Shown here: positions 211 to 62,661 of the stretch, piece after piece | Layout: the number at the start of each line of letters is the position of its first letter | Numbering within the stretch: the first letter of the stretch is position 1 | From: Bilabrum cf. latius | Lineage: Eukaryota | DNA length: 64,000 nucleotides | NCBI GenBank assembly: GCA_965178125.1 | Contig: OZ237747.1 | Span: forward strand, 186,001 to 250,000 | Direction of reading: 5' to 3' | The notes under the pieces: generated by a model | The model's input: the letters and a program-made list of their open reading frames with translations, nothing else | Database searches by the model: none | What the model was told of the DNA's origin: nothing | Translations under genes and position numbers: made by a program

Positions 211-717
211 ATGGAGGAGGACAAAATGAAGGAGCACATAACAGGCTTAGAAGAAACTATCCAAAGCTTGCGTCTACGGCTTCGGCAAGCCCTTGGGCGA
301 GCATGCGAGGCGGAACGCAACGCTCGCCTTGCAGGCGCCGAGCTGACAGCAGTCTTGGCCTACTGCGGTCCAGATCATCCAATTCACCAGATTTTTTCGC
401 AGCCAATCGAAATAAAAGGGAACTTAGAAACGTAGATCCCGCGCAAGCTTACGTTTGACGAGGCTGTTGCAAGTTCAGGCCGGCAGCAGCTGCGTCCGAC
501 ATCCAAGAAGCTCGCCGCCCTTGCTCGTGAGGTAGCCGTATCGCCTCGCAAGGTCGCGGCAGCCAGGGCAATGAAACATCGCGAGGAAATATTCTCTCCA
601 AGCACGACCTCCGGATCTGGAGCTGGTGGCGGTTCGCCAGGGCTGGAGGCGAGCACCGCTGCATCGGTTGAGGTTACGGTGCACTCTGGAGTCGCAGAAA
701 GCGTTGTTCCTGTTTGA
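211..717 (+). CDS. Hypothetical protein with a short N-terminal coiled coil; upstream exons possible
   Basis: The frame of ORF 157..435 continues through TAG (433-435) to TGA at 715-717. It includes MEEDKMKEHITGLEETIQSLRLRLRQ, a heptad-like stretch. Confidence 0.5.
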
Positions 718-910
718 ATATGCAATATTGGTCGACTGTAGGGGCATCGATAGATTCAAGAGGTCTTTGCAGCGCCGAAGGACGTCTCGTTGGCTGTAGG
801 GAAGACTCGAGAGGACGAGCAACGATTGACACTGCGACTGAGACATCGTGGCTGAGTACTCTGCGTATTGATCATAGTGTGATATTAATGTCCTTTTATA
901 TGCAAACAGG

Positions 911-2074
911 TCATGAGCCCCCGGCACCCCCTTTAGCTGCGCCACTGCCAGCCGATCCGGATGCGCCTTTCCCCCCGCGGAAGACTCTGAGACTGAACAC
1001 GTCGAAGGCGTTCACTACTATATGCACGTCGCCAGCCGCGTCCTTATGGAATTGTACGCCAGTCAAAGGGTGGTCGGACACTTCGCATCGGAAGGCCACG
1101 CTCAGCTTGACGCTGCCATCCGCGGCGGGGTCCACCCTCCATACGAGCAGGACGGCGTCCTCTGAAGTGGTCGCAAAAAGGGGCTCGCTGGGGTGTGACG
1201 TCACCGCTGTCACACACCTGCAGTGTGCATCGGCCTTGGCCAGCAGCTTGCCCCGCTTTGCACATGCCACGCGCACCTGCCCCGCGACGTCGGCCACCAG
1301 CAGCGTGCTCCCTTGCAGCGCCACCCCGGCGGCAGGCGCCCCCGTCGGGCTCTTGATGGACGCCAGCACAGAAGGGTGTCCGGCATCTACCATATTCCAG
1401 ATCGCCAAGGTGCCATCCTCGTCGCAAGACGCCAGCAGCTGCTGCCCCGACCCGTCCGTACCAGCTGCAATGCCAACCACTGGAGCCTCGTGACCGCCAG
1501 CCAATACCCGCTGCTGCTTAATCACCGGGGCTTCCCCGTCGCCAAATGCAACGGAAAACTCGAATACGCTGCCTGTGGAAGAGCCAATGTAGATCAAGCC
1601 AGCAGAGGCGTTGTACGCGATGCCGGCGCAGAATGCCGCGCGCCGGCCGCTCGCACCAGTCAAGCTTGCAGGAATAACGAAGGAGTGCGCAAGTCTGCTA
1701 TTGAGCCAAAACTATGCACCCTGGGACATCGCAACGACAAGGATGTTCTTGCCCCCGATCGGACAGAAGCACGTTTGGGAGACACCGCCTCTGTGCGGAG
1801 ACGACGGCAGTTTCGTAGAAGAGGCTGTTCGGCTCTCGTCCCCGATGTGCTCGCTCGAAATTTTGTGAACCTAATTGTCATGCACGAATGCCTGCGGTCG
1901 GTGCCATTGAATCAACTCAGCGCAGATTGCCTGTATGCGGCAGCGTGACTACAGTTGCACAGGTGGATTGACCCGACTTACCAGCTCTGAGTCCGATATT
2001 GTCAAGTTAGTGGGCAGCATCGACGGCGTCGTATTTATTCTAATGCTCTGCACATTCTCCTTGCTGTACGACAT
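911..2074 (-). CDS. WDR54: WD40-repeat protein, WDR54-like; exons 2074-1982 and 1891-911
   Basis: The intron at 1892-1981 runs gtaagt...cgcag. Joined protein: MSYSKENVQSIRINTTPSMLPTNLTI..AFVHDN[TAG]V..VSQTCFCPIGGKNILVVAMSQGA[TAG]FW..AAFCAGIA..GGHEAPVVGIA..AHCRCVTAV..SEDAVLLVW. This matches the WDR54 motif order as I remember it (ITQVHWC..LVLTSHRGIQMY..VFARGIA). TGA stop. Confidence 0.8.
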
Positions 2075-2288
2075 CGGGACGGTATTATTTTGAGGCCCAA
2101 GGTCGGGGCCTTTGTGATTTGTACAGTGCAATTCTAGAGCTGCAGTGCAATGATAAGTAGTGATTGCACTCCTTGTTCTATATACCTCTCTCAAAATGGC
2201 TGTAGGGGTTCCGGAGTCCGATATACACCTGCGATTAGTATTGGTTAGTATATGAAGCGAATGGTCGGGCAATTTAATAGCAATTAAT

Positions 2289-4627
2289 ATGTTTTTTTGG
2301 GTTGATCTGGCCTATCATAATGTGATTGCATTGCTTGAATCTAATGCCAGCATTTCGTAGGGTAACGACATCTATCAAGGCGTCAGGAAATCCCGGGTCC
2401 TCATGGTGGGATCTGGTGGAATCGGTGAGGGCTTGATCAGATGCTACGGCTTTCAAATTCTCCGCTGCGCATTACGGTCACATTTGATGGGCCTGGCAAG
2501 ACTTGCGCAGGTTGCGAGCTCGCGAAGGACCTTGTTCAGACAGGATATCGCGATTTAGAGTTCATTGATCTTGATACAATCGATGTGTCCAATTTGAATC
2601 GGCAGTTTCTCTTCCGACCAGAGCACGTCGGCAAGGCGAAGGCGAGCGTCGCAGCCGAGACCGTGTAGCGCTTCGCACCGGCCGGCTCCAAGATATGTGC
2701 TCACCACTCGAACATCATGCTCCCAAAGTTTAGTCGCGACTACTTTGCTGGCTTCGATTTGGTGATCAACGGACTGGACAACGCCGCCGCCCGCCGGCAC
2801 GTCAACCGCATGGTCCTCGCGGCAAGGAGGCCCCTCGTGGAGGCTGGCTCCACGGGGTACAACGGGCAGGCGCAGGAGATCCGGCGAGGCATCACAGAGT
2901 GTTATGAATGCTTCCCCCCTCCCGCGCCGAAATCGTATCCGATCTGCACCATCCGACAGACCCCCGACAAGCCTGTGCACTGCATCGTGTGGGCGCAGGA
3001 GGCCTTCAAGCTCCTCTTCGGGGACAAAGACGCAAGCATGCTCGTTGAGCCGGAGGAAGGGTCCGTCTACATGGCCAACTGCAAGCCGCCCACTCTGCCG
3101 GCCGACTCCGGTGCAGGAAGCAGCGGAGATGCTGCATCAGCAGCAGCAGCCTAGGCGGACATGCCTGCAGCAGCAGCAGCTGCAGCTGCAGCACAGGGCG
3201 AGGGAAGCAGGCGGGAAGCTGCCGTGGCATGGGCCGCCGGTGTGTTCGAGGGCCTGTTCCACAACGAGCTGGCGCACAAGCTGAGGAACAACCCGGACGC
3301 GTTCAAGACGGCCAAACGAAAGCCAACCCCGTTAATGCTGCGGGTCCTCCTCGGTGTCGAGGCAGACGCAGCCGCGCCACAGTCACCCTCTTCCTCCTCT
3401 TCCTCCTCTTCTGCTGCTACTGTTGCTGCTGCTACGGGTTCATCATCGTCTGCCAGCACCGAGCCCCCGGCATTTGACGTGGCCACTGCCCGCCGCGCCG
3501 CTGCAGAAGCTTCCACAACGTCGTGGGCGGGGATCTGCCAGAGGGTCCCCAGCGCCCGCGAGTGCGCCTGCAAGTTCGTCGATGCCACCGCCCGCATGGC
3601 CTTGGATCGCCTCGACGCATTCGGGGGCCTCTCCTTTGACAAGGACGACGCCCTCGCCATGGAGTGGGTGACGGCCACCGCCAACCTGCGGGCACTCACC
3701 TTCGGGATCCCGCTGACCTCTCCTTGGGACTGCAAGAGCATCGCAGGGAACATCATACCCGCCATCGCAACTACGAACGCGATCGTGGCGGCGCTGGAGA
3801 CGGGCATCGCCCTGCGGATCACTGCGCGGGCCCTGGACGAGGGCAAGCAGCAGCAGCAGAGGGAGGGGGAGGGGGAGGCATTGGGCGGGGGGAAGAAAGG
3901 GGGGTCTAGCCACCCTTTGCTCTCGCAAGTGTCCCTGACTCCCCCCGACAAAGGGGTGCACGTGGCTGTCGCCAAGGCGCTCTCGTCCCTGGGCGCCTGC
4001 GTGCGGCCGGGCGCGTGCAGGGGCCCGAGGGCCTCGTGCTTCGTGTGCGGGTCCAACGAGGTGGAGCTGCGGATCGACACGGGGGTGAGGACCCTGCGGT
4101 TCCTGGTGCACGACGTGCTGATGCGTCGCATGGGCTTCGTGGCCCCCCTGCTGGACAACAACGTGGAGTTCTCGTTCATCGAGGAACGGGAGGACGACGA
4201 GGACGACGAGGAGTACGAGCAGAAGATGGGCTTCCTGGACGTGCCCTTGCAGGGCCTGGTGGGAGGGGGCATCCATGGGGGCACGGTGCTGTCTGTCACA
4301 GACATGAGGCAGGACCTGACGGTGCGGATCTTCGTGCGGCATGCCACTAGCGGGGACCTCAACCCGGCGGGGGCGGGGGCGGGGGCGGGGGCAAAGGAGG
4401 GGGGTGGGGAGTCGAAGGAAGAAGAAGGTGATGAGTAGGAGGAAGTTTTGTTTGAGATTTGCCCCCTGGGATCATCCTCTCCAGCGAAGGCAAGGGCTGG
4501 CGGCGACGCAGGGACGGGGCCAGAGGGCCCGCTGGCCGCTGCGACGGCCGGCCAGAAGCGAGCAGCAACCGAAGAAGCCAGCGGCGAGGACGGCGGGCAC
4601 GATGCGAAGCGGCCTCGTAGCGAATGA
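2289..4627 (+). CDS. UBA2: SUMO-activating enzyme subunit 2 (UBA2/SAE2); start uncertain
   Basis: [15 protein letters not shown] is joined across the intron at 2425-2510 (gtgagg...cgcag). Motifs: [24 protein letters not shown], catalytic [36 protein letters not shown]. In-frame TAG at 2666, 3152 and 4436, and at 2358 if the ATG at 2289 is the start. TGA at 4625-4627. Confidence 0.92.
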
Positions 4628-4768
4628 GGTGAAGGGCAGAGAGCCCGGTGCGACACGTCGGCCTGAGTTGTCGAATTTTTGTCTCCCACAAGCGTGCAAC
4701 GTAGCCATCCATTGCGTATTTCACTCGACTTGGTATCGCCTGGATTAATCTGCTTCCCAATCCCAAGG

Positions 4769-7534
4769 ATGATTGGTTTGTTGTCATTCTTAGGTGTTCT
4801 ATCGTCTCTTGCGAACGGGCAGTGCCCGAACTCGCTGCCGGGGGAGCACGACGGCCTGGACTTTCCGGACGTTGGGCCAGCATTTGCGCGACGCACGCAG
4901 GATCTACAAGGTCAGACAGTGTAGTTGGGGAACGATGAACCGCCAAAGAACGTCAGCTGTGCCATGCGCAAGCTCGCTGTGGACTTTTCTGAGTACATTC
5001 TGGGCAGCACCGCCGCAAGCGGAGCGATCGCGCACGCGCTGAACGTGACCGATGACTGCAGCGGCTACGTCGGCACAGAGAAGGATAAGTACACGCAAGG
5101 CAATGGCTAGGCGAGCTTTGCCCCAGGCGGCCGACGCACCGTGGACGGATCCTTCCTGCTGCGATCCGAGGCACCAGCTGGTGGCCTTCGCGGCGCGGTG
5201 AGCAAGTACATCGACGCATCCAAAGGCAACGACAACAATGATGGGTCCTAGGATCACCCATGGGCCACCATTGCCCGCGCCGTCGAGTGGCTGAAGGCGA
5301 CGCCGCCCTCGCAGCGGCCCGATGGTGCTAACATTTTGCTCGCCCCCGGAACCTACGTGCAGAGCGAGCCGCTCTCCATCCCAGAGCAGGCGGGCGGCTC
5401 CTCTGCTAGCGCCCCGGTCGTGTTCCAGGGCACGGGGGCGTCCCCTTCGGATGTAGTGATCACCGGGGCCATGCCTGCCGGAGGCCTCGCGTGGCAGCCC
5501 ATGCCCGACGGCACCTCGGGCGGCTACTGCGCCTCGCTCCCCGCTGCCGTGCTGGAGGCCATCAAGGCGACCAAGGAGCCCGTGCGGGCCCTGCACCTGA
5601 ACCAGTCCCGCTACTGGCCGGCTCGCTGGCCCAACGCGGACCCCAACAAGTACTGCAGCCCCTTCAACCAGCCCCCGGGGGGTTGCCCAGGCCTCCTCAA
5701 CGCCGACAAGAGCAGGTCCTCCCGTGGTGACTCCTCCCAGGCGACCGCGGTGCCGGCCACAGTGGCGCTGATCAACGACCGCACGGGGGCCACCATGGCC
5801 ACCGGCCCCTGGTCCTCGTCGCACTCGTCACACCGGGACGGGCTCCGGCCCATCAACGTGTCGGCCCCTTCGCCGGTGTGGGACGGGCCCAAGGGGACGT
5901 GCACAGGGAACACGGGATGGACGGGGCCCTCGGTGGCGCGCTTCCTGCCGGACCCTCCGACGTTCTGGAGGACAGCTGTTCCGTCCTACTTCCACTACTG
6001 CGCGGCGGGCTCGCAGGACTGTCCCTCCCGCGCGGGGCAGTGGAGCAACGTGCAGGACGTGCAGGTGCACATGTACCATCCCTCTGGATGGGGCGGGTGG
6101 GTCTACCGCATCGCGGAGGGCGGGCTGGACGTGTCCTCCCAGCTGGTCAACTTTTCCTCGGGAGGCTACTAGGAGGCGAGGGGCGGAGGGATCGGGAGCA
6201 ACGCGTACTACTTCGCCAACGTGCGAGAGGAGCTGGACGATGCCGGGGAGTTCTACGTGGACGGGAGCAAGGGGGAGCTGTGCGTCGTTGTTCCTCAGGG
6301 AACAAACATCAACGCCGCGGAGGTGAGCATTCCCCTGGCCAAGGAGCTGGTGGTGGTGCAGGCGGACAACGTGCGGATCCAGGGGATGTCGTTTACGGGC
6401 ACCGCCCCGGTGTACCTCTCTGGCCAGTACGTTGTGCCGTCCGGCGGGGACTACAGCATCGACAAGCGGGGGGCCGTGCACATCGACGGGGCCACGAACG
6501 TGCAGGTGTCTGGCAGCGTGTTCCACCTTCTGGAGGGGACCGGCCTGATGGTCACGGGGGGCACGAGGTTCAGCGGCGTGAGCAACTCGCAGTTCAGCTC
6601 GCTTGGTGAGAACGGGGTGGGAATCGTGGGGACCTGCGAGGGGCTGGATTGCACCAAGGGCACTCACCCCGTGGGCTTTAAGGTGGAGCAGTGCCTCATC
6701 TCGGACTGGGGCGTGTGGGGCAAGCAGACGTCTGCTGTGTTCCAGAGCGTGGCGCGTGCGAGCGTGATCGACCGAGTGGTCGCGTTCGGCGGGCCCCGCA
6801 ACGGCATCAACTTCAACGACGGGCTCGGTGGCGGCACGGTCCTCACTCGCACGCTGGGGTTCAACTCAGTGCTGGAGACCTCGGACAACGGGTGGCTCAA
6901 CACCTGGGACCGGCAGCCCTACGCCTTCACCGCCGATCCGGAGGCCAGAGCCACCGGAGGGGGAGCGGGCTCGGTGCTGACGTGCGTGCCCGACTTCTAC
7001 CAGGTATCCCGCAACTTTGTCTTCCGCGGCAACTACCAGGACTTTGGGATCTCCAACAACATCTACAACCTCGACAACGACGACGGTTCCTCGCGGTTCC
7101 AGCACAGCAACAACGTGCTGGTGGGTGGCCCCATCAAGTTCAGGGACGGGAAGGACAAGCACTCCCAGGGCAACCTGGTGGTGTACCCCGACTATGAGCA
7201 GCCCTACGCCCAGGCATTTCAGGTCAACGGCTTCGAGTCGGACTCCTTCACCAACAACACCCTGGTGAGCGCCACCGGGCAGCCATACGGCTTCTGCGCG
7301 GGGCTGAAGACCAAGAACGCAACCGCCACGGGGCCGCTTACCGCGAACAACACCTTTGTGACGCCGATGGATCCCAGCCTTCCCTTCAGCAACGGTGGCT
7401 GCGGCGGCGCGGACGTGAAGAGCCTCAAGGCCTGGCAGGCCTTGGGGTTCGACAAGGGCACCAGGCAGACGGATGAGTTCAGCATCGACTGGCTGGTGGC
7501 GCAGGCCAGGGCGAGGCTCTGGGCGGGGGAGTGA
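4769..7534 (+). CDS. Secreted right-handed parallel beta-helix (pectin-lyase-fold) protein, about 921 aa
   Basis: One frame runs across 4 TAGs (4922, 5108, 5249, 6170). It has the signal peptide MIGLLSFLGVLSSLANG and the motifs YIDASKGNDNNDGS[Q]DHPWATIARA, WPARWPN, GGY[Q]EARG, YFANVREELDDAGEFY, GPRNGINFNDGLGGG, NTWDRQPY and LDNDDGSS. Confidence 0.8.
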
Positions 7535-7704
7535 GGCGGGCGATCCGAATGGAGGGCGCTGATGCTCTGGCAGCGCGAACGGGTTCCGGGTGGATCTCAT
7601 CGTGAGAGCTCGCTGCGCGTCATACCGATCAGCGCGCCTTGCGTTTCTAGAAAAAGTTCACAGCTCAACAAATTCAATTAGACTCGCTTTTATCGTTCAT
7701 ATTT

Positions 7705-8778
7705 ATGATAGCTCGCAGCGCTAGCCACGCGCTGGTCCGGTAGATGTGTGTACAGTTGCGAAGTGCAACTGTTGGACGGGGAGCCTTCTTGCAGCCAGCT
7801 CCGCCTTTTAGGCACCTGTCCACAAGCGCCAATGATGCAGAATAGGCCCGATAGTAGTACGAGAAAGACGGGTACTGCATCCTCCGTGGTGTTCTGGACG
7901 AAGATACCATTCGAGAGGCGCAGCAGCACGTGAACTGGCTAAGGAAAAGATTTACGAACATACCGGGAGAGCATTTGCATCACCACATCATGCGAAACGA
8001 TCCTTTTTGGGTCAGGCTTGTAAGCGACCCTAGGCTCATTCGAACAGCAGCGGCAGTGATGCCGTGCTTCGAAGACGACGGCAACAACGGCGGAGGCGTA
8101 GCACTTTTCTCGAGCCACTATTTCTGTAAGGATCCTGGGTCAACGCAAGCTGTTCTTTGGCATTCGGATGGAAGCTATTGGCCCCAACTGGAGCCAATGG
8201 ACAAGGTGGCGACGCTCTGGCTCGCGATCGACTCCTCCGACCGCGAGAATGGCTGCCTCCGAGTGGTGCCCGGCTCGCACCACTGGCCATTGCGCAGCCT
8301 CACCGACGACACGACCGAAAGCAACGTACTTGGCTCTCGCACTCATGCGGACGACGAGATCGACGAGTCGGAAGTGGTGGACCTGGAGCTGGCCCCTGGC
8401 GACGTCAGCATGCACCACCCCAGCCTCATCCACGGGTCGCTGCCGAACCGCTCCACCCGCAGGCGGTGCGGACTCACGATCCGCTACATGACTGCAGACA
8501 CGCACTGCACCGATCAAGACCAACCCGTGATGATGATGCGAGGCTCCCCGCACCCTGGCACCCCAAATGCGTATCGGTCCTGGCCGGCATTCAGGGGACA
8601 GGAGGACCCCGAGGCGTACTACGCGTTCGAGGGGTGTGACGAGTGGAACGACGGGCGGCGGCGGGAGGGTGCCGCAGAGGAGGAGTACCTCTTGCGCGCG
8701 CCTGTCGATCAACTGCATCACGAGGTCAAGTCAGGCCTCGAGTCGTTCGTGCGAGGGCTGGGCGGGCACGTCGGCTGA
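7705..8778 (+). CDS. Phytanoyl-CoA dioxygenase (PhyH) family Fe(II)/2OG dioxygenase with a putative mitochondrial presequence, about 357 aa
   Basis: Motifs: WHSDGSYW (HxD), TLWLAIDSSDRENGCLRVVPGSH, LAPGDVSMHH and HGSLPNRSTRRRCGLTIRY. The N-terminal AE[TAG]AR[TAG][TAG]YEKDGYCILRGVL matches the family EQ..Q(F/Y)..DGY start. The Arg/Ser-rich leader ends in RHLST. Confidence 0.88.
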
Positions 8779-8906: not shown

Positions 8907-11900
8907 TCACCGCCATCTCCTCGTGCCCTGCCTGCTGGCCTGCCGCAGCTGCACCCCCACGTTCACACTGGACCTGTTCCCCGCCCGACTGCCTCCCCCC
9001 CCAAGACCCCCCAGGCTCTGCAGAGACCCAGACATAGATAGCGAACCGCTGGCAGTTGCGGGCCGGGAGCCCGCCATCGCTCCACCGTGACCGAGACCAT
9101 GACCCGCTCCAAGACCATGACCCGCTCCAAGACCATGACCCGCTGCCTCGAGCTCGGCGCGGAACATGCCCCGGCCTGACGCGGCAAGAAACGCGACCGA
9201 TGGATCCACAGCCGCAGACAGTGCCCCGGCTCCGGCTCCGGCTCCGGCCCTCATTCCTTGCGAGGTGCTGCCCCGCAGAGGGGACAGCTAGCCCCCAGAT
9301 GCACCCCCCACCACGCTTCCCGCACCCCAGGCAGCCACCGGCCCCGCCCCGGTTCGACCCTCACCGACCTGGCCGCCCTTCTCGCGCCCCCGCCTCCGCC
9401 CCCGACTCGCGCCGAGACCCGCGGCAGACTGGGACCGGTGCACGCTCCGGCCAGAGGCTATCGGTGGCATGCCGCGCCTGGGCTCAGGCTCCAGCTCGAG
9501 TCCAGGCGGGATCCTGGCCCCGGCTCGCATGTGGGCAGCACGCCGGCGCTGCGATGGGGTGCGAACCGGACTGCGAGCCAGAGCCGGCGTGCCGCCAGGC
9601 TTGCGGCCGGCCCGCCCGGCTCGCTGCGGCGAGGTGGGGGCGGAGAGGGATGAGGGAGAAGAGGGGGCAGATGCCGGATCGGGGTCCTCCCCTCCGTCTC
9701 GGCTCGAGCCCGTCTTGACGTCGCCCGATACAACGGCCCGCCGCACGGTGAGGCTGCTGACACCCCAGAGGTCCTGCTGCGTGGCACCGCTGCCAGTCCC
9801 CATGGCGGCGATCGCGGGGTGCGGCCCAGGCATGCCCAGCGTGCGCCGCATGCGCGCGCTCTCCCTCGCCTGCTCCTCCACCCGCAGCACGGCGCTGCCT
9901 GGACGCTTGCCCTCTCGCCCGTCCGATTGGCCCGCGCTGCCTCTGTCATTGGCGGCTGTCTGCTTTGCCTCGCCGGAGCCGGATGCTGCTGCGCGTGGCA
10001 TTGATGGGGCTGGGCCCGTCGCTCTGGCGAATGATCCCCGGACGCGGCCCGCTGATGCACTCAGCGGCCTGCCCCTGATGCGGCCCCGCAGCGGCGAGGA
10101 CTGCATCACAAACCGGTCAGGCTCCGCGTCCTGCCCCCTTGCACTGCCACTGCCACTGCCGCTGCCGCTACCGCTACCGCTGCTGCCGCCCCCTCGGCTC
10201 GCCCCCGAGATGCCACCCTCTGCGCCTGCGCCTGCCCGCTTGGCCCGCCTTGCGAGGGCAAGGTCCATCCGCTGCAGCGTGATGGCCAGCTACTGCTGAG
10301 ACCTCTCCACGAACTCGTGCAGCTCGCGCGAGTGTTCCCTGGCATCGGGCACCTCGGGGAGAGCCATGTCCAGCTCCTCGTGCATCGCACGGGAGGCCTC
10401 GGCAGCAGCTGCCAGCCCCGCCGGTGACATCGGCGAAGCAGCCCCCGAGCGGGTGCCGCGAGTTGGTGACCCCCCGCCCGTGTGCTTGGGACTAGGGAAA
10501 GGCTTCGTGAGCCGCGTCAGGTGCTCCAGCTCGGACCCCTCGGGGGCCAGAGGCGGCTGCGGCTCCTCTCGCGCGTCGACCAGTCGCCCCGCACCGGGGT
10601 GCCTGCTGGTGGGGGCCCCTGCCGCCGCGGGTGCATGCGCCGCGCCCAAGGTGGGGCTCGGGATGATTTCGCGCTCCAGCTCGAGCAGCCCGCGAGCCGA
10701 GAATCGACGCATGGCAGGGGCGGACCTCGGGCGCCGCGGCCGCGATTCGTCTGGAACGACAGCTCTGTGCTCATCGTCTAGAACGTCAGCTCTGTGCTTA
10801 TTGTCTGCGTGCAGCTCTGGGGACTGTTCCCACTGCTGCGAGCCCTACTACGCCTCTGGTGCTGGTGCTGGTGCTGGTGCTGGTGCTGGTGCTGGTGCTG
10901 GTGCTTGTCCCCCATCCATGCGAGGTGTGGCAGCCTGAACCAGCCCAGACGGCGATTCTTGCGCTTCTGCAACGCGAGCCATCAGACCCTCGGTGCCTGC
11001 GTCGCCACCCTGCGGTTCACGGTGCCTGCCCGCACCGAGCACGGACATTTCCAGGAAATCGCCGGGACCCATCCCCACCCTGTTGGTGCCTGTCCTGGCG
11101 CCATCACCGCCCCCACCCATGCTGCCGCCTGCGCCTCGCAGACCAGGAGTCTCCGCCAGCTGCCGCCTCGCAGACCCAAGCAGCCCGCTGCCCGCCGCCC
11201 CAGCCCCCGCCTCTGCAGCAGGCGCGGGCAGGAGACCCAGGGACACGGAGGGTGGCCAGGCCAGCCCACCGGCGTCCATCTCCCCCTCGTCGTCTCCCTG
11301 CCCCACGGATGTGGCGGGCCTCCGCCGGGATCCGCTCCTACGGCTGAAGATGGGGCGGTCGGGAGCGGCCGCCCCGCGGGGCAGGCCCATGTCCACCCGG
11401 GTGGAGCGCACTGCGGTGCCCAGCCGCCGCGCCTCGCGCCTGTCGTATGCCTCCTCCCGGCGCTTGGCTCGCAGCAGCGCGCGAATCCCCATGCCACCAG
11501 CGGTCACGGGGCGGCTGCTACCACCCCCACCCCCACCCCCACCCCCACCGCCGCTGCTGGTGCTGGAGGCTCCGCCAGGGCCACCATGCCTGGTCTGCCG
11601 CATCTGTCTGCGGATGAGCTCGACCTCGTCAGCGTCCGACGCGCCTGCGCCTCCCCCCGGTGCGGCCGCCCTGCTCGACTGCGCGGCCTGCCTCAGTCGC
11701 CTGGCCTCGGCCTCCTTCTTCTCCCGCGCCACCCGCTCCCGCAGCAGCTGCCTCCTGACGTGTGTGTCCATCGAGCGCAGGCCTCGCGTCCACCGGAAGC
11801 GCTTGCGCATGCGGAACGCACGCTGCACCAGCCTCACTGCCCGCAGCACGCTGGTGGGCTGCCGCAGAAGCAGGCCCACGTGCACGGATTTCTGCGCCAG

Positions 11901-13668
11901 CGCGCGCCACACGCTCGCGGGGACAGAAGCCTCCCAGTCAGCCGCCCGCGCCTGCGCCCCCAGCTCGTCTGCCAGCCGATGGGCCTCCCTGGCGGTGCCC
12001 TCCAGCGGCGGCAGTGGCTCGTTGGCGCGCTCCATGACAGCCTAAAAGCTCGAAGCGGCCTCAGGGTCCCGCTGTTCCCCACCACCCCCGACACTACTGC
12101 CCACCAGCGAGGCGTTCCGCAGAGGCGCCGCTACGTCCACGGGAGGCGCCGCGAGGTCGGTCAGCGGCAGCTGCGAGATGACGGCGCGCACGATGGACTC
12201 GGCCTCCTCGAAGTCGCGGCGCAGCTGAGCCTCCCGACGGGTGGCCGGCGTGACTGCGGGGGTCCCTGGAACAGAGCTGCCGCCCGTGTTGAGGGCAGCG
12301 GATGATGCTGCCCTCCTCATCGAAGCAACCCGGATCGTGCCCATGCCCTGCGATGCGATCCGCTTCAGCTGCTCCCTCCGCGCCTGCTTCTTCTTCTGCC
12401 TGACAGCCATCGCCACGCTGCGCCCGTGGCTGAGGCTGGCCCTGCGCATGACGGCTTTGCTGCCCTTGGACAAGGCACTTGCCTTGGAGAAACCGCTCTC
12501 CTTGGACAGCTGAGAGGACTTGGAGCTGCGGGATGACACGGAGGACTTGCTACCACGGCGGTGGTGGCGGCGCCGCATGCTCCTGCTCCTGCTCTTGCTG
12601 TGCCTCCTCCGAGCGCCCGGCGACCCCTTGCTGCCCGGCGACCCCTTGCTGCCCGGTGACCCCTTGCCGCTGCCACTACCCCCCTCCTCCTCCTCCTCCC
12701 ACTCGCTCGTATCGGAGCTCAGGCCGTCCATCCCCTGCGACAGTCCGCGGACGAACTCGGCCTCACGCACGCGCCGCCTGGCCCTCCGCATCCGCCGCCC
12801 GTAGTCCAGGTCCAGTCCCCTGGGCGCCCTCGCCTCCACCCGCCGCATCTCCTCCCTGATCTAGCCCGTCACGTGCTTCTCGATCACCGCGGCGCTCCTA
12901 GACCGCTGGAAGCCCAGCTGTGTCTCTGCGAGCGCGGCGGTGATCTGGTACGCCGTGTTGGGAGGCAGCAGGTTCGCCTTGAGAGCCTGGGTGACCTGGT
13001 GCCGGGAGAGGACGGGGAGCTCCGGGGGACGCTCGAAGAAGTGCCTGACCTCGGCCTGGTCCTGCTGCCGCCGCTGCTGACGGGCCAGGGCCTGGGCGCC
13101 CCGGAGGCGCCTGCGGGACGTCTTCACGGCAGAGCCGCCCCCGATGGCGGACAAAGGGTCCTTCATGGCGCGGGCCTTGGCCCGACTGTTGCGCACGATC
13201 TGCTCCTGCACGGCGGCAATGTGCCGATCCTCCTCCTGGTCGGACGGAGCAGACTGCCCCGGGCCCGCGCTGCCTTCGCCGGGCGCATTTTTGGCATGCT
13301 TACCCTCCTCCAAGTCGCTGCGGGGAGTCGCATCCGCGGTCGAGACGGCGACCGAGCCAGAGTCCAGCTCGACCCCTGACCCTCTCACTGCTCCGGCCCT
13401 CCCCAGGGACACCTGTGACCGCACCAGGGGCAGGAGACCGCCGCTCCTCCCCCCAGACTACTAGTCTCGCCCGGCCTACTACTAGTCTCGCCGAAGGCTC
13501 CACCGACCGCTGGATCGACTGCTGGACTTTCTAACAGCGGCCGAGAACGGGGGTGGCCTGTCCCTCGTGCTGCTGCTGCTGCTGCTGCTGGTCTCGACAG
13601 CCTCATCGATCTTGCCCCCGACATTGTGGCCTCCAGCTGACCGGCCCAGATCCACGCCGGGGGGCACT

Positions 13669-13699
<31 letters not shown>

Positions 13700-17397: not shown

Positions 17398-17429
<32 letters not shown>

Positions 17430-18494: not shown

Positions 18495-18649
18495 GACTTC
18501 ATTGGCAGTGCCTCACAGTCCGTTCCAACCCAGCGCTGGTCCGTTTGGCGAACCCGTCCTGCCGAACGTTCCGTAGATGACTGCAAATCCGGAACAAGCT
18601 CCCGAAAATCATTGTGACGCCGATACGAGACTATATTCCCGAACTTAGC

Positions 18650-53900: not shown

Positions 53901-53964
53901 GCTCCTCCTTAATGTGCCGCTGAAGGACACCAGAAGGGGCGGGGCGTCTAAGCCGGATGTCTGA
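50948..53964 (+). CDS. Orphan basic protein of about 970 aa; putative exons 50948-51360 and 51465-53964
   Basis: ORFs at 51355, 51676, 51994, 52234, 52669 and 53032 share one frame and are separated only by 6 TAGs. The upstream ORF at 50948 joins in phase through a putative intron at 51361-51464 (gtaggg...accag). The C-terminal KRKRSKKKKKTK is NLS-like. Confidence 0.6.
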
Positions 53965-54153: not shown

Positions 54154-57100
54154 TCACGAGACCTACATCAAAGCGTCCGCGAGTACCTGCCGCCGCACAG
54201 GCTTGGGAAGGACCCTCTCCGCCCCACATTTCACAAAGTGCCGCTGATCTTCCAGCAGCACGTTCCCCGTCACGCCGATGATGCGCACTCCATCCAGGGC
54301 CGCGTCCCGTCTGATGGCCCGAGCGCACTCGGCCCCGCCCACCCTCGGCATGCTGAAGTCCATAAGAATCACATCACCGGGTCCAAGCGCGCGCGCCGTG
54401 GGGCTGCCCTGACCTGCGGCCTAGCCCTCGTGGCTAGTGGCGAGCAGGCCGGGTTTGCCGCGCATGCTGGTGCTGCTGCTGGCGCTGTCGGCTCGCATCT
54501 CGAGGCTCAGTTGCTGTCGGCTCCTCGACGCCCCTCTCGACGCGCCAGTGTACACCTCTCGTGATTCATCGTCCAGACCTGCAGTGGCCTGCTGCTCCAT
54601 GACTGCCACTTCGTCTCTGCTGGGCAAGTCATCCTAGCACAGCGCTGCGGCAATGAGTGGGCCAGGCACCCCCAGCAGCTCGAGAGCGCGAGCACCATCT
54701 GCTGCCTCCAACACGTGCGTCACTCCGATGCGACGCACTGCGCTAGCAATGTACTTCCTGTTGGACCGCTCGTCGTCCACGCACAAGACCCGACTGGGCA
54801 GTCTCGGAATCCCCGACCGAGAGCCGCCCGCACCTGCACTGTCCCTCGTGCTAGCATCTCGCCGCTGATTCTAGTGGCCCTTACGGCTAGCATCCCGTCT
54901 GCGCGGTCTCCTGGGCTTGCGCATGATGGCTGTGCCGCTGGACCCGACCAGAAAACTTGACTTCTTGGGTCGCTGGCTTCTCGATGGCAGTACCAGTGAT
55001 CCACTCAGTTGAGGCTGGGCGAGGAGCTCCGACCCCCGCCGAGCCATGACCAGCGGACACGGCACCCACGCCCAGAATATGCTGCCCGTGCCCTCCTCTG
55101 AGATGCAGCCGCATGCGCCACCATGCAGCTTTACGATGTTCTCTGTGATTGCAAGCCCCAAGCCGCTGCCCTTGCCCCCCTGCTGCAGATTCGCGTTGAT
55201 CTGTGAGAATTGACGGAATAGCTGACGCCGGTTGTGGTCCGCAATCCCGACACCACGATCCCACACCCAGAAGCTGAGCATCGCAACAGGGAAATCAAGA
55301 GGTAGGCCATCCCCAGTTTGCCCGCGCTCGCTGGCCAGATCGAAAAAGCGGGTGTCGTCGAAAACCTTTGCGGTTGCGGACCTGCCATTCCCTTCCGGTG
55401 CAATGCCGCCCTCCTCGTCCTCCGCGGACAGACCTCGTCCCCTGGATCGAAGCGATGACTGCGAATCTAGAAATTTTCCGTCAAAGCTTCCCTAGCCCAG
55501 CCGCATGACCCTGTTGCTCCGCAGCGACGATCCAACAAAGCTGCGGCCAGACGCCTGGGACCTGATCGTGCCCCGGCTCCCGCTTCGATCGGAGCCCTGA
55601 AGGCCCATCCAGATGTCCACCAGCTCGCGCACGTGCCCACGAGTCTGAGGCGATGCGCTCTCTTCGAGGTCACGCCGCACTTTCTGCAGTATCGCCTCTC
55701 TGGGCACGTGCCACGACGCAGTACGTCTGCGGTTCTCGCTGTAGGTGGAGGACAGCGACCGAGCAGGTAGCTCCGGCGAGTACACCGCTCGAGGCAGGAT
55801 GCTGCTGATGGATCCCGCAGCCCGCGTATTCGTGCGCTGCACGAACCCAATCTAGCTACCAGAGATCAAGTCGCTGTGAGCAAAAGGGGCAGACCCAAGC
55901 GCAAACATCATGCTCTTTAACTCAGCAGCTCTGCGCCGCGACAGCACACCAGTCTCTCTCGCGACATCGGCATCCCACATCACAGGGGGCGTATCCGATG
56001 TTCCGATCACAATCTAGCACTCTGGGATTGCTGAAGGATCCGAAGGTGATCTGGTTGCAGTTACTGCGTCACTTGCGCAGCTCGCTGCCGACACCGCGCG
56101 CAAGCGGCCCGATTCGGCCGCACGCAGCATCGGCTGGCAATCGTCCCCGCTAGCTTCACTGCCCTGCGATCCCTAGGCTCTAAGGGAAAACTTGACCGCG
56201 TTGGAGATAAAGTTTGCGGTGCACTGCTGCAGCCGCGGCAGGTCGCACAGGTACTTTGGACGATGTGGCGATCCGAAACGACCATCGTCCGAGTGACCAG
56301 CCAACGAGTTTTCGATCGCTGCAGCACCTCTGCTCTAGTCGGACTCCCATGGTGCTTGCTTCTGTGCGGATCGGACCGGCGTTGAGTATTCCTGCTCATT
56401 CCTGGGCATAGTTGTGTCCGCTGGCTGTGTCTTGCTCGGGCTTGCAAGCGCCCGCTGGCTTGCAGCACCGTGTCGCTGCATAGGACCAGAGGACTCTCGC
56501 CGGTGCAGCTCGCTGGACTGCGTGTCCTGGTCTGTCCATCCCTCCAGGGACACTCGGTTGACCCCTGCCACGGTTCGAAACGACCCCACGGCTGTCGTCA
56601 AAAGCATGCGAGACGCGTCGCAGGGCCGGTGCCGCAGCTTCACGGCGTCCCCGCTTGACTCTTCCAGAGACACAGTATCTCGGAGCACGGCCACAATCGA
56701 CTCGGCGGACTGCATCATCGTGGGGGCGAGCTCGTCTTTGAGCGAGTGGATGTGGGATCGAAGCTCCCGGGGCAAGGCCAAAGCAGATTTGGCGTGGGCT
56801 GAAGCTGCTGCTGACCGTGTGGCTGAGTTTGCACGGGCTCGCAGCACATCGCGCGCCGCGTCTTCGGCCGCCTCAATGCTCATGGAGGCTGCATTCAAAG
56901 GCGATAGCGTGTCGTGCAGCATGAGTCTAAGCACGTTCGACAGGTCCCTCCGCTTCGCCTCAGCCCCGTCGACTCCCAACCGCAGATGGGCAACCCGGAC
57001 CGCGAACGAGAGCACCACGGTCAGTGTGATCAGCTGAACGAGGCAGGCTGCACACTCCAACACAGCAAGAATGCCTATTTTTTGCTCGACGTTTCTTGTT

Positions 57101-59203
57101 TCTCGATCCATGATGCTTCCATTGGAGGCCTCATTATCCACAGCAAGAGACCACAGGAGCACAGCGAGCTGCACGAACCCCCGCGCTGTGAGCGCTTGTC
57201 TTTCAAAGGTGAGGGCACCCTCATCTCCGGTGACCGCCTGCACGTCCAAACTCCACATCTAGAGCATCGTCTCGTTCTGGAGGCTTGCCACCAGGCCTTC
57301 GATCTCCGCCGGGGTGGCTCGATCTAACACACGACCGGCCACCACGGCGGACAGCATGGCATTCCTCGCGTGCTCTGGGCAGGAGATGTGCATCGGGCCG
57401 ATGGAGAAGTAGTATGTGCTTTCAATGATAGCCCACGCGAGGAGCAGCACCTTCAGTCCTATGAATGTCCGTACCTTTGCCTCGACGATCTGCTTCACCG
57501 CAATCACTTGCGGCGAGTGAGGAAGCGCCGAGCCTGCATGCTTGGTCTATCCAGCCTACTCCGAGCTGGCGATCCACGGATCAGCCTGGCCCATCGAGTC
57601 CCATTTGCTAGGTTTTTGGCTCATAGCTACTGATTCCTGCTGCCTGGGCTCATCGTAGCCTGATGAAGCGTCACTGGCGGATTCAGTAAGGGAGGAGCCA
57701 ATGCTCCCTGCGCTCACCAAATTCATCCTGCTGAGGTGCATGTCGGAGCCACGAGCCCCCACCCTCATCCGGCGAAGAATACCAACGACTGCACCTTTTG
57801 GCTACGATGCGGCATTGCTAGCTTCGCCGGATCCAGAAGAGCAGCAGCCCTTCGCCAAGTATTGCCACCCAAAGAGGCAACCATCCCGGTAGCACTGCCT
57901 GACTAAAGACGCATGGCAGCGCTCATCAATGCATGATCGATCCTCTCCGGTGTAAACATGCCTGTCACCAACCCTTGCTATCAAGAAGAGCATGGTTACG
58001 CCAGCAAGGACGTACGTTGCGAGCGTCGATGCGAGCGCCGCCGGGAATTTGTATTCATCCTCGGCCTGCTAAATTGCTCGAACATCATGTACCTGCCAGC
58101 CTGCATAGTGTCTCAGGGGCTCAATGCCGTGTGGTAGTTGACTGCGCCAAAGATTAACATCTTGCCGGTCCATGAATTCGGATGCCAGAGGCAGAATGCA
58201 TGCAGCGGAGGGTACAGCACTCTTATGCAACAGCTCCTACAGACCAAGGAGCTTTGAAACTATAATTGAGGCCCTAGTTTGCTCTATGGATGTGAATACC
58301 TGCGTAAACATGATCGCCGATACTGCTGCAAACTGGATGGTGGGCAACACTACGCTGGTCTCCCCGGCAAGGGCCCAAACCAGCATGGATATCGAAAATC
58401 TCCTGCGGAGGAAAATATGCACCAAGAACCTCGTTCGACGCTGCAGGCGGGGTGTTCATGCTATTACGGCAAGATGGCAGCACTTCCTCTCACGTTGAGA
58501 CACCCTCCAATATCTGTCGATATGGAACGTAGAACTACACATCCTTTGATTGCCAAGAAGGATCATCAAAAACAAACACTGATGTGCGGAACGCATCTAA
58601 AGGAGCGATAAACTAGCCGTCACCGCCCGAAATAGAAAGCACTCGAAGGACGACACCGGCTACAACCACGATCATCACGTGTGAAGCAATCCTCTGCACT
58701 TGCGCAGATCTTGAAGCAACAGTCGAAAACACCATGGAGCACGGACCAAGCGCGCCGACTATTCCTAAGAGCCCCGAACCGAGCCAAATAGACACTGCCG
58801 AGACGCTGTAGCCCGCGTATTCCGCGGCTGCAGGCTGTATCTCTAGGGGAGCCTTGACGATTGAACTCGTTGTCGGTACAGCATATGATAAATCCTGATG
58901 CACATTAATCCTACTATCGATTTCACGGATGTACGCTGTCGAGTTGCACCGGCCGTCCAGCGCGTCGATCACAGTGCACCATTTCGCGGAATCTGTCGAC
59001 TGCCTGTCCCCACTCCTGCTGAGATGGACACCAGAGGGCCCTAAACGCATGAAACCAATGCATAATTGCACGAAGAATGCTAGCAATAGCACCACGATGG
59101 AGTATATTCTCAGCAAGGTCCATTGCGCGTGCTTGCCTGTATTGCAGCGGCAGCTCCAGGCAGCGGCAAGCGCAGACATGACGATATAGATATCAAGAAT
59201 CAA
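54154..59203 (-). CDS. Membrane-bound hybrid histidine kinase (TM region, HisKA, HATPase_c, receiver); 5' end unresolved
   Basis: H-box LRLMLHDTLSPLNAA, N-box DLPRLQQCTANFISNAVKFS, G1 WVWDRGVGI, G2 GSGLGLAITENIVKLHGG, and receiver LCVDDERSNR..ILMDFSMPRVGGAE..IIGVTGN..LPKP. Intron at 58403-58493 (gtgaga...cgcag). About 17 TAGs. TGA at 54154-54156. Confidence 0.88.
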
Positions 59204-59682
59204 TAATATTGGATCCGAGTGGCTACACGTACAAGAAGCGGCTCCATACAGTACGGATCACCCCAACTTGAGGGCTGAAGCTTTGCTCATCAATCAAATG
59301 GACCCGCCGTAGTATCTGCGTTGATAATAAAGCGAAGTAAATGGACCATGAAAATAATTGGATGATTCTTCACCTTATCTATACAAGATATGATTTCTAG
59401 GGACAACGTAGCGCTGCACAAAGCAACCGACACCTCAATAAAGTATGAGATGAGACGAACCATTCATGTCCATGTCTATCCGTGCCTACCTCACGAAGCC
59501 CTCGGGAGTACTGCAGCGTTAATTGGACGCTAAAATTCTCGACAGGTGCTCACGTACGACGCCAGATGGTCGAACAATGCGTGCAATACGTGCCTACGAA
59601 GGATTCACCCACATCATGATCCCAATCGTTCTTATCTTCATTTTCACAATTTGTAGATCTTTCTAGACTACACAAGCACGCA

Positions 59683-62661
59683 ATGACACATATTCGTCTG
59701 GGTCTTCAAGTTCTGTCGATATGTATTTTATCTGTTATTGTCTGTTCCTCTGAAATTGGATGTCGACACGCGTAGATTATTTTGAACGAATCCACGAATG
59801 GGGCAACCTACCGCCTAACATCACAAGGACTCGTCTGGTTGGATTCAACACGGTCTGGAATCCAAGCATATGTATATGGAAAATGGAGATCGTCTGCTGC
59901 CGGAAGCATGAACCCTGCTAGGCAACCAGCATGGACGAATGGCTCTGACGCAAACGGACATTATGTGCAACGCACGTTTTATTGGGGCGTACAGAACAGT
60001 AGTACAACCCTAGAGTTATCGTTTAGGGCATATGAGTGGCCTTTATGCGCCTTATTGCTCTCACAGTCGTGGAAAACCCCCCAAGTTGGTGTCGTGAACG
60101 GGACAAACAGCTTGCCGCCATGCACGAAGCCAGGAGCGAGCTGTCCAGCTGAGCCTAGCGTCGAGTTCCCTTCTTTCTCCGTACATAGTAGCTCATCCGT
60201 GACGCAGCAACTTGGATACCTCACCTGGTACGGGAATTAGATCACACAACACGCAGCCGGCCGCGGCCTCTCGCAGATCCCCGTCGCCACGCAGAGCGAG
60301 TCGGCAGGGTACGAGACAGGCCCGGTCGTGCTGCACGATGGATCCGGGATAGGGGCATCCATCGTGGTGGGCCCACTGACCCACCCTCTGGTGGCGGTGC
60401 AGTCGATTGGTCCGAGCCAGGCTACCGGCGCGAGCAAGAGCAAGAGCTACTACTAGACGGATGAGACTGCCGGTGAGTCTAGCCTGTGGCGGCACGGCAT
60501 CTCGGGGGAAGTACCGCGCCTGTTCGCCACCCCGTCCAGCGACAATGTGGCAGGCAAGCACCAGAAAGGTCAATTCTTCCACGCCACCGCCATCGTGCCA
60601 TCCCTGGACGGCGTCAGGGCAGCCACGAGAGCCTACGGACAGATGCTCCTGCGAGCCGCCGGCGCAGGGAACAAGGGGCCCGACCCTGCGGCGCAGTACC
60701 TGAGCGCGTGGACGGACCATGGGTCTAGCTACTACTTCTTCTAGTGGGAGAACCCGCTGTCGGATGGGCCGCCGGCAGATGTCGTCCTGGACTGGTGGCA
60801 GGAGCTGGGCGAAGGGGGAGCGGCTGCCATCAGCAAGAGACGGACGGCTGCCGCTGCACTGGCTGATGCACCAAATTACTCCTCCTCCTCCTCCCCCCCC
60901 TCCTCCTTTTCCTCCTCCTCGCCATCGTCAGAGTCAGCGACGCAGACGAGTGGGAGCACAACCCTTCGTGGACCTCGTTCCCCTTTCCGGTACATGCAAC
61001 TGGATGCGTGGTGGTACGCGACGGACGGCTTCAACGCTTGCATCCAGGATTTCTCTGGGCACCCCAAGTACTTTCCCGACGGGGGTGTGGGGGCGTTCTC
61101 CAAGCGACTGCAGGCGTGGGGGCTCTTCGAGAACCGATCCGTTCACCTGTACCACAACTACTTCTGCCCGAACAACAGCTACACGAGCAAGTACGGCTTC
61201 TTCGAATCTGACGACCCGCAGAAGGAGTACCTGCTGGTTCGAGGGAACGAGTCGAGAGCATTCTACGATGCTCTGTGGGCGCAGGGCATCGAGCAGGGCA
61301 TGCTCGGCACGGAGATCGACTACCTCTCAACCAGCTACCAGCTGCAGCCGGCGCTGCGAGAGAGCCTGACCAACGCACAGGACTGGCTCCAGGGGATGGC
61401 TGATGCGGCCCTGCATGCGGGCGTGCCCCTGCAGACCTGCATGATGCTGCCGAGGTATCTGCTGGCTACCGCTCACTTCCCCGCGGTGGCTGACGCCCGA
61501 GGCTCGCAGGACTTCTGGCAGGACCCGGTGCAGTACGAGTACAGATCGACCGGGAACCTGGTGCCCATCGGGTACTCGGCTCTGCTCTTGGATGCGCTGG
61601 GCCTGCGCGTGAGCAAAGACACGCTGTGGACCTCGTGGCCGCAGCCCATGCTCGGAGGCATGAACCAGACGCACCCGAACCCCCACATCCACGTGCCGGT
61701 GGCGGTGCTGTCTAGGGGGCCGGTGGGCGTCTCGGACGTCAAGGGGCACACCGACTTTGGCCTGCTGCTGGGCTGCTGTGCCGACGACGGCCGCATTCTC
61801 CAGCCCACCAGGGCGATTGCCTCGTCGCCCCGCACATTCGCGCAGCCCAAGTTCCCGGCCACAGACCCGCTCGCCGGCGTGGCTGGCTCGCTCGTGTGGT
61901 CCTCTAGCGCAGACGTACCGCCCCAAAGCAGGCATGGATCTAACGATTCCTCGAAATTAAAGAAGGAGCCGGCGTTTGATGAAGCCGCCGATGCAGCTGC
62001 TACTGGGGTGCTCCGCAGCCACCAGGTGCTTGGGTTCAACGTGACCAGCGGCCCATGGGAGCTGGACGGGACCCGCAATCCGGACGGATGGCCCTTGTCT
62101 CGGCACGACCTCTTCCCCGTGCCTGATGTGTCTGTGCCTCTCGTATGGAGGGCGTGGTAGCCGCAGGGACAGGCACGCGGCGCCGCACTGCCCGCTGCGA
62201 GCAGCACTGCGGCGTGCGTCGAGGGCGCGGTAATTGCCATCACGCATGGTGGTCGTGCTGGCGGGGAATCGTGTGCGTTTCTGTGGCCGGCAGGAGTGGA
62301 CACAGGGCCGACCATCTCGACCGGGACGGCCAACCGCACCACCGGCCGCATGGACGACGTGCTGGTGCACGTGCACGAGGCCACGGAGGGCTGGGTGCTG
62401 CTGGGCGAGCTGGACAAGTTTGTCCCCGCATCTCCTGATCGGGTCACTGGGTATTCCATCACAGCGTCAGGGTGTGGTACTACCACCGGTGCTTCCTTGC
62501 GCGCAGGAGCGGACAAGGTGCTGCGCGTGACGGTGCTAGGTTCGGAAGGAGAGGTTGTGAGGATGGTGGCGGCGGCGGCAGGTTCAGATGGGGCGTGGAC
62601 GGTGCGGGTGCGGCAAGTGACCTTGCCTGGCTCGGGCACTGCTGAGATTTGCTTTGAGTGA
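59683..62661 (+). CDS. Secreted glycoside-hydrolase-like (TIM-barrel) protein, about 992 aa
   Basis: One frame runs across 5 TAGs (59773, 60238, 60454, 60742, 62158). It has the signal peptide MTHIRLGLQVLSICILSVIVCSS and the motifs YLSAWTDHGSSYY, PFRYMQLDAWWY, WLQGMADAA..PLQTCM, ARGSQDF, AVLSRGPVGVSD, CCADDGRILQP and WVLLGELDKFVPASPDR. The last motifs recall the GH36/raffinose-synthase-like clan D fold. Confidence 0.7.

Follow-up and report, generated by a model that had tools for sequence, protein, structure and literature searches.

We analysed a 64-kb window of genomic DNA from Bilabrum cf. latius (assembly GCA_965178125.1, contig OZ237747.1, positions 186,001 to 250,000). "The window" below means this whole stretch of 64,000 nucleotides, and positions are counted from its first base. 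The protein-coding genes of the window are interrupted by in-frame TAG codons. The sequence data presented here indicate that UAG is very probably read as glutamine, with UGA as the usual stop codon and UAA as a rarer one, which is the code of NCBI table 15.

The guanine plus cytosine (GC) content of the window is ~63% overall and ranges from 54 to 70% across 4-kb bins. Its gene set is typical of a eukaryotic nucleus. Pfam matches identified UBA2/SAE2, a UBR1/PRT6-like E3 ligase, WDR54, a bZIP factor and a PP2C phosphatase, and matches to Pfam or PDB added an F-box/FBO_C protein, a hybrid histidine kinase, PhyH, cysteine synthase, a MetX-type homoserine O-acetyltransferase and a DUF1565 beta-helix protein. 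A partial UAA-family transporter, a GST and ribosomal protein S8e (RPS8) are also present. The genes have few and short introns, three of which (GT..AG; 92, 100 and 176 bases) could be read directly from joints in transcript contigs. The window represents nuclear DNA of a protist with a high GC content and few introns. The features are listed in Table 1.

The first-pass annotation had counted by hand about 100 TAGs interrupting 16 of 19 genes. Our recount gave 104 in-frame TAGs over the 17,619 codons that follow the presumed starts; at least one is present in 16 of 19 genes on both strands, the same figure. GST, RPS8 and the partial UAA transporter are free of TAG. All five positions cited earlier were found in frame as described: 32380 (WTN[TAG]FDN), 37716 ([TAG]RQAI), 24376-24378, 1712-1714 and 6170. 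Under the standard code, the longest open reading frame (ORF) has 923 codons. When TAG was freed, ORFs of 3947, 3202, 1762, 1434 and 1014 codons appeared. When TAA was freed instead, the top ORF stayed at 923, and freeing TGA gave a maximum of 1388, though the TGA trinucleotide is commoner than TAG (1424 vs 815). Pfam domains continue past the TAGs. The UBR box of the 3946-residue UBR1/PRT6-like ORF, for example, spans residues 62-122 and PRT6_C residues 3789-3923, and the ORF contains 17 TAGs. The in-frame TAGs are confirmed as genuine and occur well above chance.

Table 1. Genes and open reading frames of the window, with supporting matches (E-values) and in-frame TAG codons.
Feature	Position	Strand	Match	In-frame TAGs and remarks
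5'-truncated ORF	1-717	+	no Pfam match	2 after first ATG
WDR54-like WD40 gene	911-2314	-	Pfam WDR54 2.7e-11	3 (first bases 1951, 1873, 1714)
UBA2 / SUMO-activating enzyme subunit 2	2429-4627	+	Pfam ThiF 1.4e-41, UAE_UbL; PDB SAE2 1e-84	2666, 3152, 4436; TGA stop
Beta-helix (DUF1565-like) secreted-type protein	4667-7534	+	Pfam DUF1565 6.2e-05	4922, 5108, 5249, 6170
Phytanoyl-CoA dioxygenase (PhyH) family	7606-8778	+	Pfam PhyH 2.1e-33	7741, 7843, 7852, 7855
3201-codon low-complexity ORF	8907-18512	-	no Pfam match	23; open only with TAG freed
GST	19030-19665			none
F-box protein	19972-22327	+	F-box-like ORF 19972-20928 (3.3e-06); FBO_C ORF 20531-22327 (1.9e-12)	20801, 20873, 22076, all in FBO_C part
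bZIP transcription factor ORF	22627-24447	-	Pfam bZIP_1 1.4e-06	5, two in basic region (24399, 24378); TAA stop
PP2C phosphatase, long C-terminal extension	25137-30422	-	Pfam PP2C 3.4e-40	29957, 29324, 29171, 27437, 26153
Cysteine synthase	31562-32961	+		31778, 31790, 31910, 32030, 32380; two exons (to 32068, from 32161), GT..AG intron 32069-32160
Ribosomal protein S8e (part seen)	33125-34158	-	Pfam Ribosomal_S8e 2.5e-21	none; intron 33772-33947; TAA stop 33344-33346
Coiled-coil protein gene	34574-36290	+		34889, 34949, 35069, in exon 1; two exons, GT..AG intron 35144-35243
Homoserine O-acetyltransferase (MetX family)	36570-38345	+	PDB homoserine O-acetyltransferase 3.5e-65	36918, 37716
UBR1/PRT6-like N-recognin E3 ligase, 3946 codons	38665-50505	+	Pfam zf-UBR, ClpS, UBR1-like_wing, PRT6_C	17
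881-codon ORF, no known family	51319-53964	+	no Pfam match	5 after first ATG
Hybrid histidine kinase (HATPase_c and receiver domain)	54154-58455	-	HATPase_c 2.7e-15, Response_reg 2.2e-14	15, the last 3 codons before TGA
1013-codon near-orphan ORF	59620-62661	+	one database homologue (35% identity over 28% of query)	5

A search with UBA2 found two fragmentary close relatives, P0002 (86% identical by BLASTP, 91% in the alignment) and P0003 (56% and 62%). A first metagenome scan with the three-sequence alignment returned no locus; a second scan, with P0003, gave L001, a 7.8-kb metagenome contig (positions 1-7839, 55.5% GC) that holds P0003 and has the WDR54, UBA2, PhyH and beta-helix neighbourhood in common with the window. 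These four genes of L001 contain 3, 2, 3 and 12 in-frame TAGs, respectively (20 in total), and all four end in TGA. The gene order differs: the beta-helix gene of the window sits between UBA2 and PhyH on the plus strand, and in L001 PhyH directly follows UBA2 and the beta-helix gene lies beyond it on the opposite strand.

Amino-acid identity between the window and L001 is 0.67-0.77 (~70%), and over the 30 residues after a TAG it is 0.66-0.84. Among the aligned codons, 638 are identical, 802 differ synonymously and 625 differ in the amino acid. Since identity after the TAGs equals the overall identity and synonymous changes prevail, the genes are functional past their TAGs, and under purifying selection, in both species. 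At least one relative at ~70% amino-acid identity uses the same code. Database entries P0002, P0003, P0123 and P0163 are partial proteins. P0122, which is identical to the PP2C of the window, is a fragment that ends exactly at TAG 29957, and P0163, a fragment of a relative's PP2C, ends just before TAG 29171. Fragments that end at a TAG or start after one are explained by standard-code gene calling, which breaks such genes.

Seven sequencing runs contained at least half of the sampled words of 31500-38400, and four of them (X4 to X7) were compared with the window over 31500-50600 as contig assemblies. X4, from the study of the probable source, has one contig across this whole region with 0 differences. 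X5, X6 and X7 belong to two further studies and are filed under other organism codes. Their contigs skip 32069-32160 (GT..AG), 35144-35243 (GT..AG) and 33772-33947 (CT..AC, a minus-strand intron), and because of these skipped introns we consider them transcripts. Of the 27 TAGs in 31500-50600, 24 lie under the listed X5 pieces (8 on spliced contigs), 8 under X6 contigs that are all spliced, and 4 under X7 contigs. TAGs 41371, 41965 and 43900 fall outside the X5 pieces among those listed, which carries no evidential weight.

In the cysteine synthase gene, spliced X5 and X6 contigs skip the 92 bases of the intron and keep all 5 TAGs with 0 differences. Spliced contigs of the coiled-coil gene were found in X5, X6 and X7. 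An X5 contig covers the MetX gene (36556-38479, 0 differences), and 14 of the 17 TAGs of the UBR1/PRT6-like ligase lie under X5 contigs, again with 0 differences. The table of differing letters for the four runs is empty. As the spliced contigs keep the TAGs unchanged, these codons are neither spliced out nor edited. That mRNA retains UAG, a check proposed by the first-pass annotation, was seen in spliced contigs from two other studies without a differing letter. Assembly error, which had been named as a possible cause, is contradicted by in-frame TAGs in contigs of runs from three studies and in the metagenome contig of the relative. Other joints in the runs (40313>47981, 39709>48573, 48592>36112 and those near 43722-43764) were taken as assembly chimeras and not as splicing; they have extra letters or short sides and lie in GA/GAC-rich low-complexity coding sequence.

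To avoid bias, TAG was translated as X in the alignments used to identify the residue, and likelihoods were calculated with substitution frequencies from the same window-L001 alignments. The four alignments place TAG against a sense codon at 26 positions, where the partner is Gln 14 times, Ser three times and Gly twice, with Tyr, His, Lys, Cys, Asn, Glu and Trp once each. Both species have TAG at one further position, WDR54 1873. Gln reaches a log-likelihood of -54.9, vs -84.5 for Lys, -90.6 for His, -94.3 for Glu and -137.8 for Leu, a lead of ~30 units. The TAG columns are therefore not dominated by another residue, nor do they lack a consistent one, in this comparison at 70% identity. The Gln share at TAG positions (54%) equals what ordinary Gln codons show, whose self-conservation is 0.53. 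The partner Gln codons are 11 CAG and 3 CAA, and the overall usage of CAG and CAA in the window is 582:133. Because the partner ratio follows the overall usage, the Gln signal seems to be more than one-step mutation from CAG to TAG.

Among the individual sites, WDR54 TAG 1714 and UBA2 TAG 2666 of the window are both CAG in L001, and TAG 6170 of the beta-helix gene is CAA. In the reverse direction, 8 of the 12 beta-helix TAGs of L001 are opposite Gln codons of the window, and 2 of its 3 PhyH TAGs are opposite CAA. P0002, 91% identical, has Gln at UBA2 TAG 4436. Counted as a Gln codon, TAG is a minor one: it makes up 104 of the 829 Gln codons of the window (12.5%) and 20 of 85 (24%) in L001, whose GC content is lower. 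The genome-wide Gln assignment proposed earlier is supported as far as the Gln reading goes, by the 14 of 26 partners and the spliced contigs; its genome-wide part is an extrapolation from the 64-kb window and the 7.8-kb contig of the relative.

Comparison with distant homologues gave a mixed result. At cysteine synthase TAG 32380, each of the four printed PDB alignments, with three cysteine synthases and a CBS, has Gln. This Gln is presumably conserved across the wider family. At MetX TAG 37716 the PDB alignments show Q, Q, G and M. Thus, among the sites where the first-pass annotation had expected Gln in homologues, cysteine synthase and, through L001, WDR54 and the beta-helix gene agree, and MetX agrees in part only.

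Several observations weigh against the Gln reading. Other TAGs in the printed PDB alignments are opposite L, S/N/H, L/K, E, S and D. Five TAG columns were usable in the UBA2 (118 hits) and PP2C (146 representatives) alignments, and there Glu was best (-12.3) with Gln seventh (-17.2), so that the codon-to-conserved-column check suggested earlier did not favour Gln. The UBA2 2666 column has Leu in 42 and Met in 34 of 118 hits. In the PP2C [TAG]HK column, 124 of 146 representatives carry Asp; Pro occupies this site in the nearest full-length homologues, and a stop-like codon does so in the 75% relative. In the relatives' PP2C fragments, His is found at TAG 29957 and Glu at TAG 29324. Opposite CAG, TAG is also expected from a single C-to-T mutation, and the L001 tally shows what TAG replaces, not directly the residue inserted. 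A tRNA scan of the 64-kb window and the 7.8-kb L001 found no tRNA gene and hence no tRNA-Gln(CUA), in a sample that is uninformative about the genome. All run evidence comes from contigs and not from raw reads. X5 was labelled "RNA? (probably DNA)" by the tool, and no run is recorded as RNA, so that the RNA nature of X5, X6 and X7 follows from the splicing. As for the distant columns, they appear variable or subfamily-specific and of low power (a spread of ~5 units vs ~30 in the close comparison), and they lend no support to Gln. The 1013-codon ORF was useless for TAG columns, with a single homologue at 35% identity over 28% of the query. A neighbour-context test was uninformative as well: Gln flanks TAG at 3.8% against a background of 4.1%, and the profile singles out no residue.

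We then considered other explanations of the TAGs. The one that survives best, though still improbable, is an ambiguous code in which UAG is Gln inside genes yet ends some of them by context or nearness to the 3' end, as other codons do in Condylostoma and Blastocrithidia. With ~19 genes seen, a minority of TAG-terminated genes could be missed, and the histidine kinase TAG 3 codons before TGA fits either reading. However, TGA is the stop in 16 of the 17 tallied genes that reach a 3' end, and TAA in the remaining one, bZIP; RPS8, counted separately, also has a TAA stop; and none needs TAG as a stop. UBA2 of L001 has a TAG 13 codons before its TGA that is apparently read through. Conservation between L001 and the window persists after it, up to the shared DAKRPRSE end, so a position close to the 3' end does not turn a TAG into a stop.

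Less probable again is that UAG is sense and inserts a residue other than Gln, such as Glu, Lys, His or Leu; Leu is its meaning in the rhizarian exLh and in some phyllopharyngean ciliates. In the distant-homologue columns E, A, D, K, L and S do score above Q, with Leu common at just two of them, both variable; Leu also occupies two TAG columns of the printed PDB alignments, and Glu and His occur in the relatives' fragments. Against this, the L001 partners include 14 Gln vs one Glu, one Lys, one His and no Leu in 26, and the log-likelihood gap is ~30 to the next residue and ~83 to Leu. The Gln site of the cysteine synthase and CBS alignments is a TAG, and the five distant columns are variable and only ~5 units apart.

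A very unlikely alternative is that UAA and UAG both encode Gln (NCBI table 6, the commonest variant), with TAA merely rare from the high GC content. TAA is indeed rare in the window overall (311 trinucleotides on both strands), and the bZIP frame stays open for 61 codons beyond its TAA. As the gene models had been bounded by TAA and TGA, we freed TAA on top of TAG: 13 of 15 genes were unchanged, FBO_C gained 10 codons on its 5' side and bZIP gained the 61 codons. The RPS8e TAA (33344-33346), by contrast, lies within a few residues of the normal C-terminus of the family, and its last residue coincides with that of the 94%-identical P0280. Internal TAAs are absent from the 17,619 codons, vs ~24 expected if TAA were Gln (CAA:CAG 133:582; Poisson P(0) = 5e-11). 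L001 likewise has 20 TAGs and 0 internal TAAs, though CAA accounts for 19 of its 65 standard Gln codons. UAA as a terminator is seen in one clear gene, RPS8, together with bZIP. From the RPS8 stop and the missing internal TAAs in the window and L001, the reassignment is limited to UAG, in agreement with the first-pass annotation, which gives the code of NCBI table 15.

Hardly credible is that the TAGs are not translated at all and represent pseudogenes, assembly or sequencing errors, UAG-to-CAG editing or small unrecognised introns; nothing specific favours this beyond the fact that the evidence comes from contigs only, and it conflicts with the same TAGs in contigs from three studies and in spliced mRNA contigs, with another species from an unrelated metagenome that has its own in-frame TAGs, one at a shared position, with purifying selection after the TAGs in both species, and with the number of sites, 104 spread over 16 genes that include UBA2 and the 3946-codon E3 ligase, which is incompatible with pseudogene decay.

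If UAG is Gln, the mechanism can be predicted by analogy. To read UAG without also reading UAA, a code needs a tRNA whose anticodon is CUA (PMC5304391). By the same logic, a tRNA-Gln(CUA) would decode UAG and not UAA in this organism. It would probably derive from a duplicated tRNA-Gln(CUG), which is one anticodon mutation away, and glutaminyl-tRNA synthetase would have to accept it. The N-domain of eRF1 would have lost or weakened its recognition of UAG and kept that of UAA and UGA. Genes for this tRNA, the synthetase and eRF1 are absent from both the window and L001.

We compared this code with known ones (PMC5304391, PMC11687900 and PMC9523058). In Iotanema spirale (Metamonada: Fornicata), UAG alone is Gln, and UAA and UGA are stops with UAA as the primary one (PMC5304391). 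The present case shares the UAG-only change to Gln and the predicted mechanism, in which a tRNA-Gln(CUA) acts together with an eRF1 that recognises UAG less well. It differs in that most stops are TGA and not UAA (16 of the 18 seen), in a genome of ~63% GC. As the nearest named homologues are stramenopiles and not metamonads, its origin would be independent of that in Iotanema. In the phyllopharyngean ciliates Hartmannula sinica and Trochilia petrani, UAG is putatively Gln and UAA is kept as a stop (PMC11687900). Unlike these, in which UAA is the main stop, the window shows no ciliate affinity in its homologue matches and has TGA as its dominant stop. NCBI table 15 ("Blepharisma nuclear code") is the same table, with TAG as Gln and TAA and TGA as stops. 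It also serves TAG-recoded phages, for example crAss-like ones (PMC9523058), but those are viral genomes in bacterial hosts, whereas here we have a eukaryotic nuclear genome with spliceosomal introns and ribosomal-protein genes.

Codes in which both UAR codons are Gln (table 6) are known from many ciliates, hexamitin diplomonads, some ulvophyte green algae and Amoeboaphelidium (PMC5304391). They share the change from stop to Gln, presumably via a mutated tRNA-Gln, but TAA still terminates here. UAG is Leu in the rhizarian exLh (PMC5304391) and in three uncultivated phyllopharyngean ciliates (PMC11687900). Those codes have a sense UAG uncoupled from UAA, as here, but the Leu partner count (0 of 26) and log-likelihood (-137.8 vs -54.9 for Gln) separate the present code from them. 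We found no report of UAG alone as Gln in stramenopiles, or in eukaryotes beyond ciliates and fornicates, nor of any nuclear code change in stramenopiles, in the full-text literature, where subscription journals are poorly covered.

The affinity of the organism was examined with UBA2. Of the best 120 hits, those that carry a legible organism name are all stramenopiles, 33-39% identical: oomycetes, Hondaea, Mucochytrium, a pelagophyte and Tribonema. An outgroup-free UBA2 tree unites the window with L001 (support 1.0) and places this pair with P0004, P0005, P0006 and P0013 (0.999), apart from oomycetes, ochrophytes and labyrinthulomycetes. RPS8 gave no resolution as a taxonomic marker, since its named matches are arthropods, plants, molluscs and others at 52-60%. 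From the one gene UBA2, we hold a stramenopile affinity with moderate confidence. The label Symbiodinium sp. KB8 was found on P0276 (in the cluster of P0126, a PP2C homologue 38% identical to that of the window) and on P0370 (RPS8, 60%). Both sit among environmental sequences and may stem from another eukaryote in the Symbiodinium sp. KB8 assembly.

The code variant is already known; the lineage and a probable independent origin appear new. We give roughly even chances to an independent UAG-only change to Gln in a deep heterotrophic stramenopile-allied lineage of 55-63% GC with UGA as the main stop, a switch that may be recent. P0004, P0005, P0006 and P0013 are predicted full-length under the standard code, so the switch may be bracketed by relatives with both codes. 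If so, the order of the tRNA and eRF1 changes becomes directly testable. In the usual picture, stop codons are captured under AT pressure and UAA survives as the stop; a GC-rich genome with UGA as the main stop would fit poorly with it. Nuclear code changes are rare, with few eukaryotic lineages in the legend of Fig. 4 of PMC5304391. Split meanings of UAG and UAA are rarer still (Iotanema, exLh and a few ciliates), and a new, apparently independent case would be a data point on how easily UAG separates from UAA. In practice, standard-code gene prediction fragments the proteins of the source organism, and databases already contain such fragments. Annotation, phylogenomics and proteomics of this organism, also where it occurs in cultures under other labels, should use table 15.

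Runs X5 to X7 hold transcripts of the source organism with 0 or 1 differing letters per listed piece, and the organism seems to inhabit or contaminate cultures or samples labelled otherwise. In a single X7 contig (depth 2.1), a T is inserted after 33037 in the cysteine synthase 3' untranslated region, probably a low-coverage error. RPS8e has spliced contigs in X6 and X7 and is the deepest gene of the stretch compared, with a summed depth of up to 6716 in X5 vs 5-30 in most neighbouring bins. It has no TAG, four CAG codons and a TAA stop; TAG may be shunned in highly expressed genes.

The Pfam PALP match of cysteine synthase is divided between two frames. Its best matches are chains 5jis, 5i7w and 5jjc, named only "cysteine synthase" (E ~1e-74 to 1e-76), and plant or other cysteine synthases and CBS match far more weakly (E ~1e-30 to 1e-41). 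An N-terminal extension of ~100 residues, possibly a targeting sequence, has two further TAGs within it. The F-box-like and FBO_C domains of 19972-22327 (plus strand) lie in different, overlapping frames and are probably one gene with an unrecognised intron or frameshift.

Two giant ORFs of the window have no introns: the 3201 low-complexity codons of 8907-18512 (minus strand) and the UBR1/PRT6-like ligase of 38665-50505 (plus strand). In the ligase, domains are recognisable only at residues 62-122, 423-471, 1450-1547 and 3789-3923, with long Ala/Gly/Ser/Glu-rich inserts between them. The 3201-codon ORF has a GC content by codon position of 0.72/0.61/0.77 and contains tandem TAGs: TAG-TAG-TAG at 13476-13484 and three TAG-TAG pairs. 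Within 13458-13484, a TAG-TAG stands four codons after the triple; other TAG-TAG pairs of the window are at 18456-18461, 10845-10850 and 7852-7857. TAG-TAG adjacency is enriched ~10x (5.8% vs ~0.5%), and the tandem TAGs look like repeat slippage of a Gln codon.

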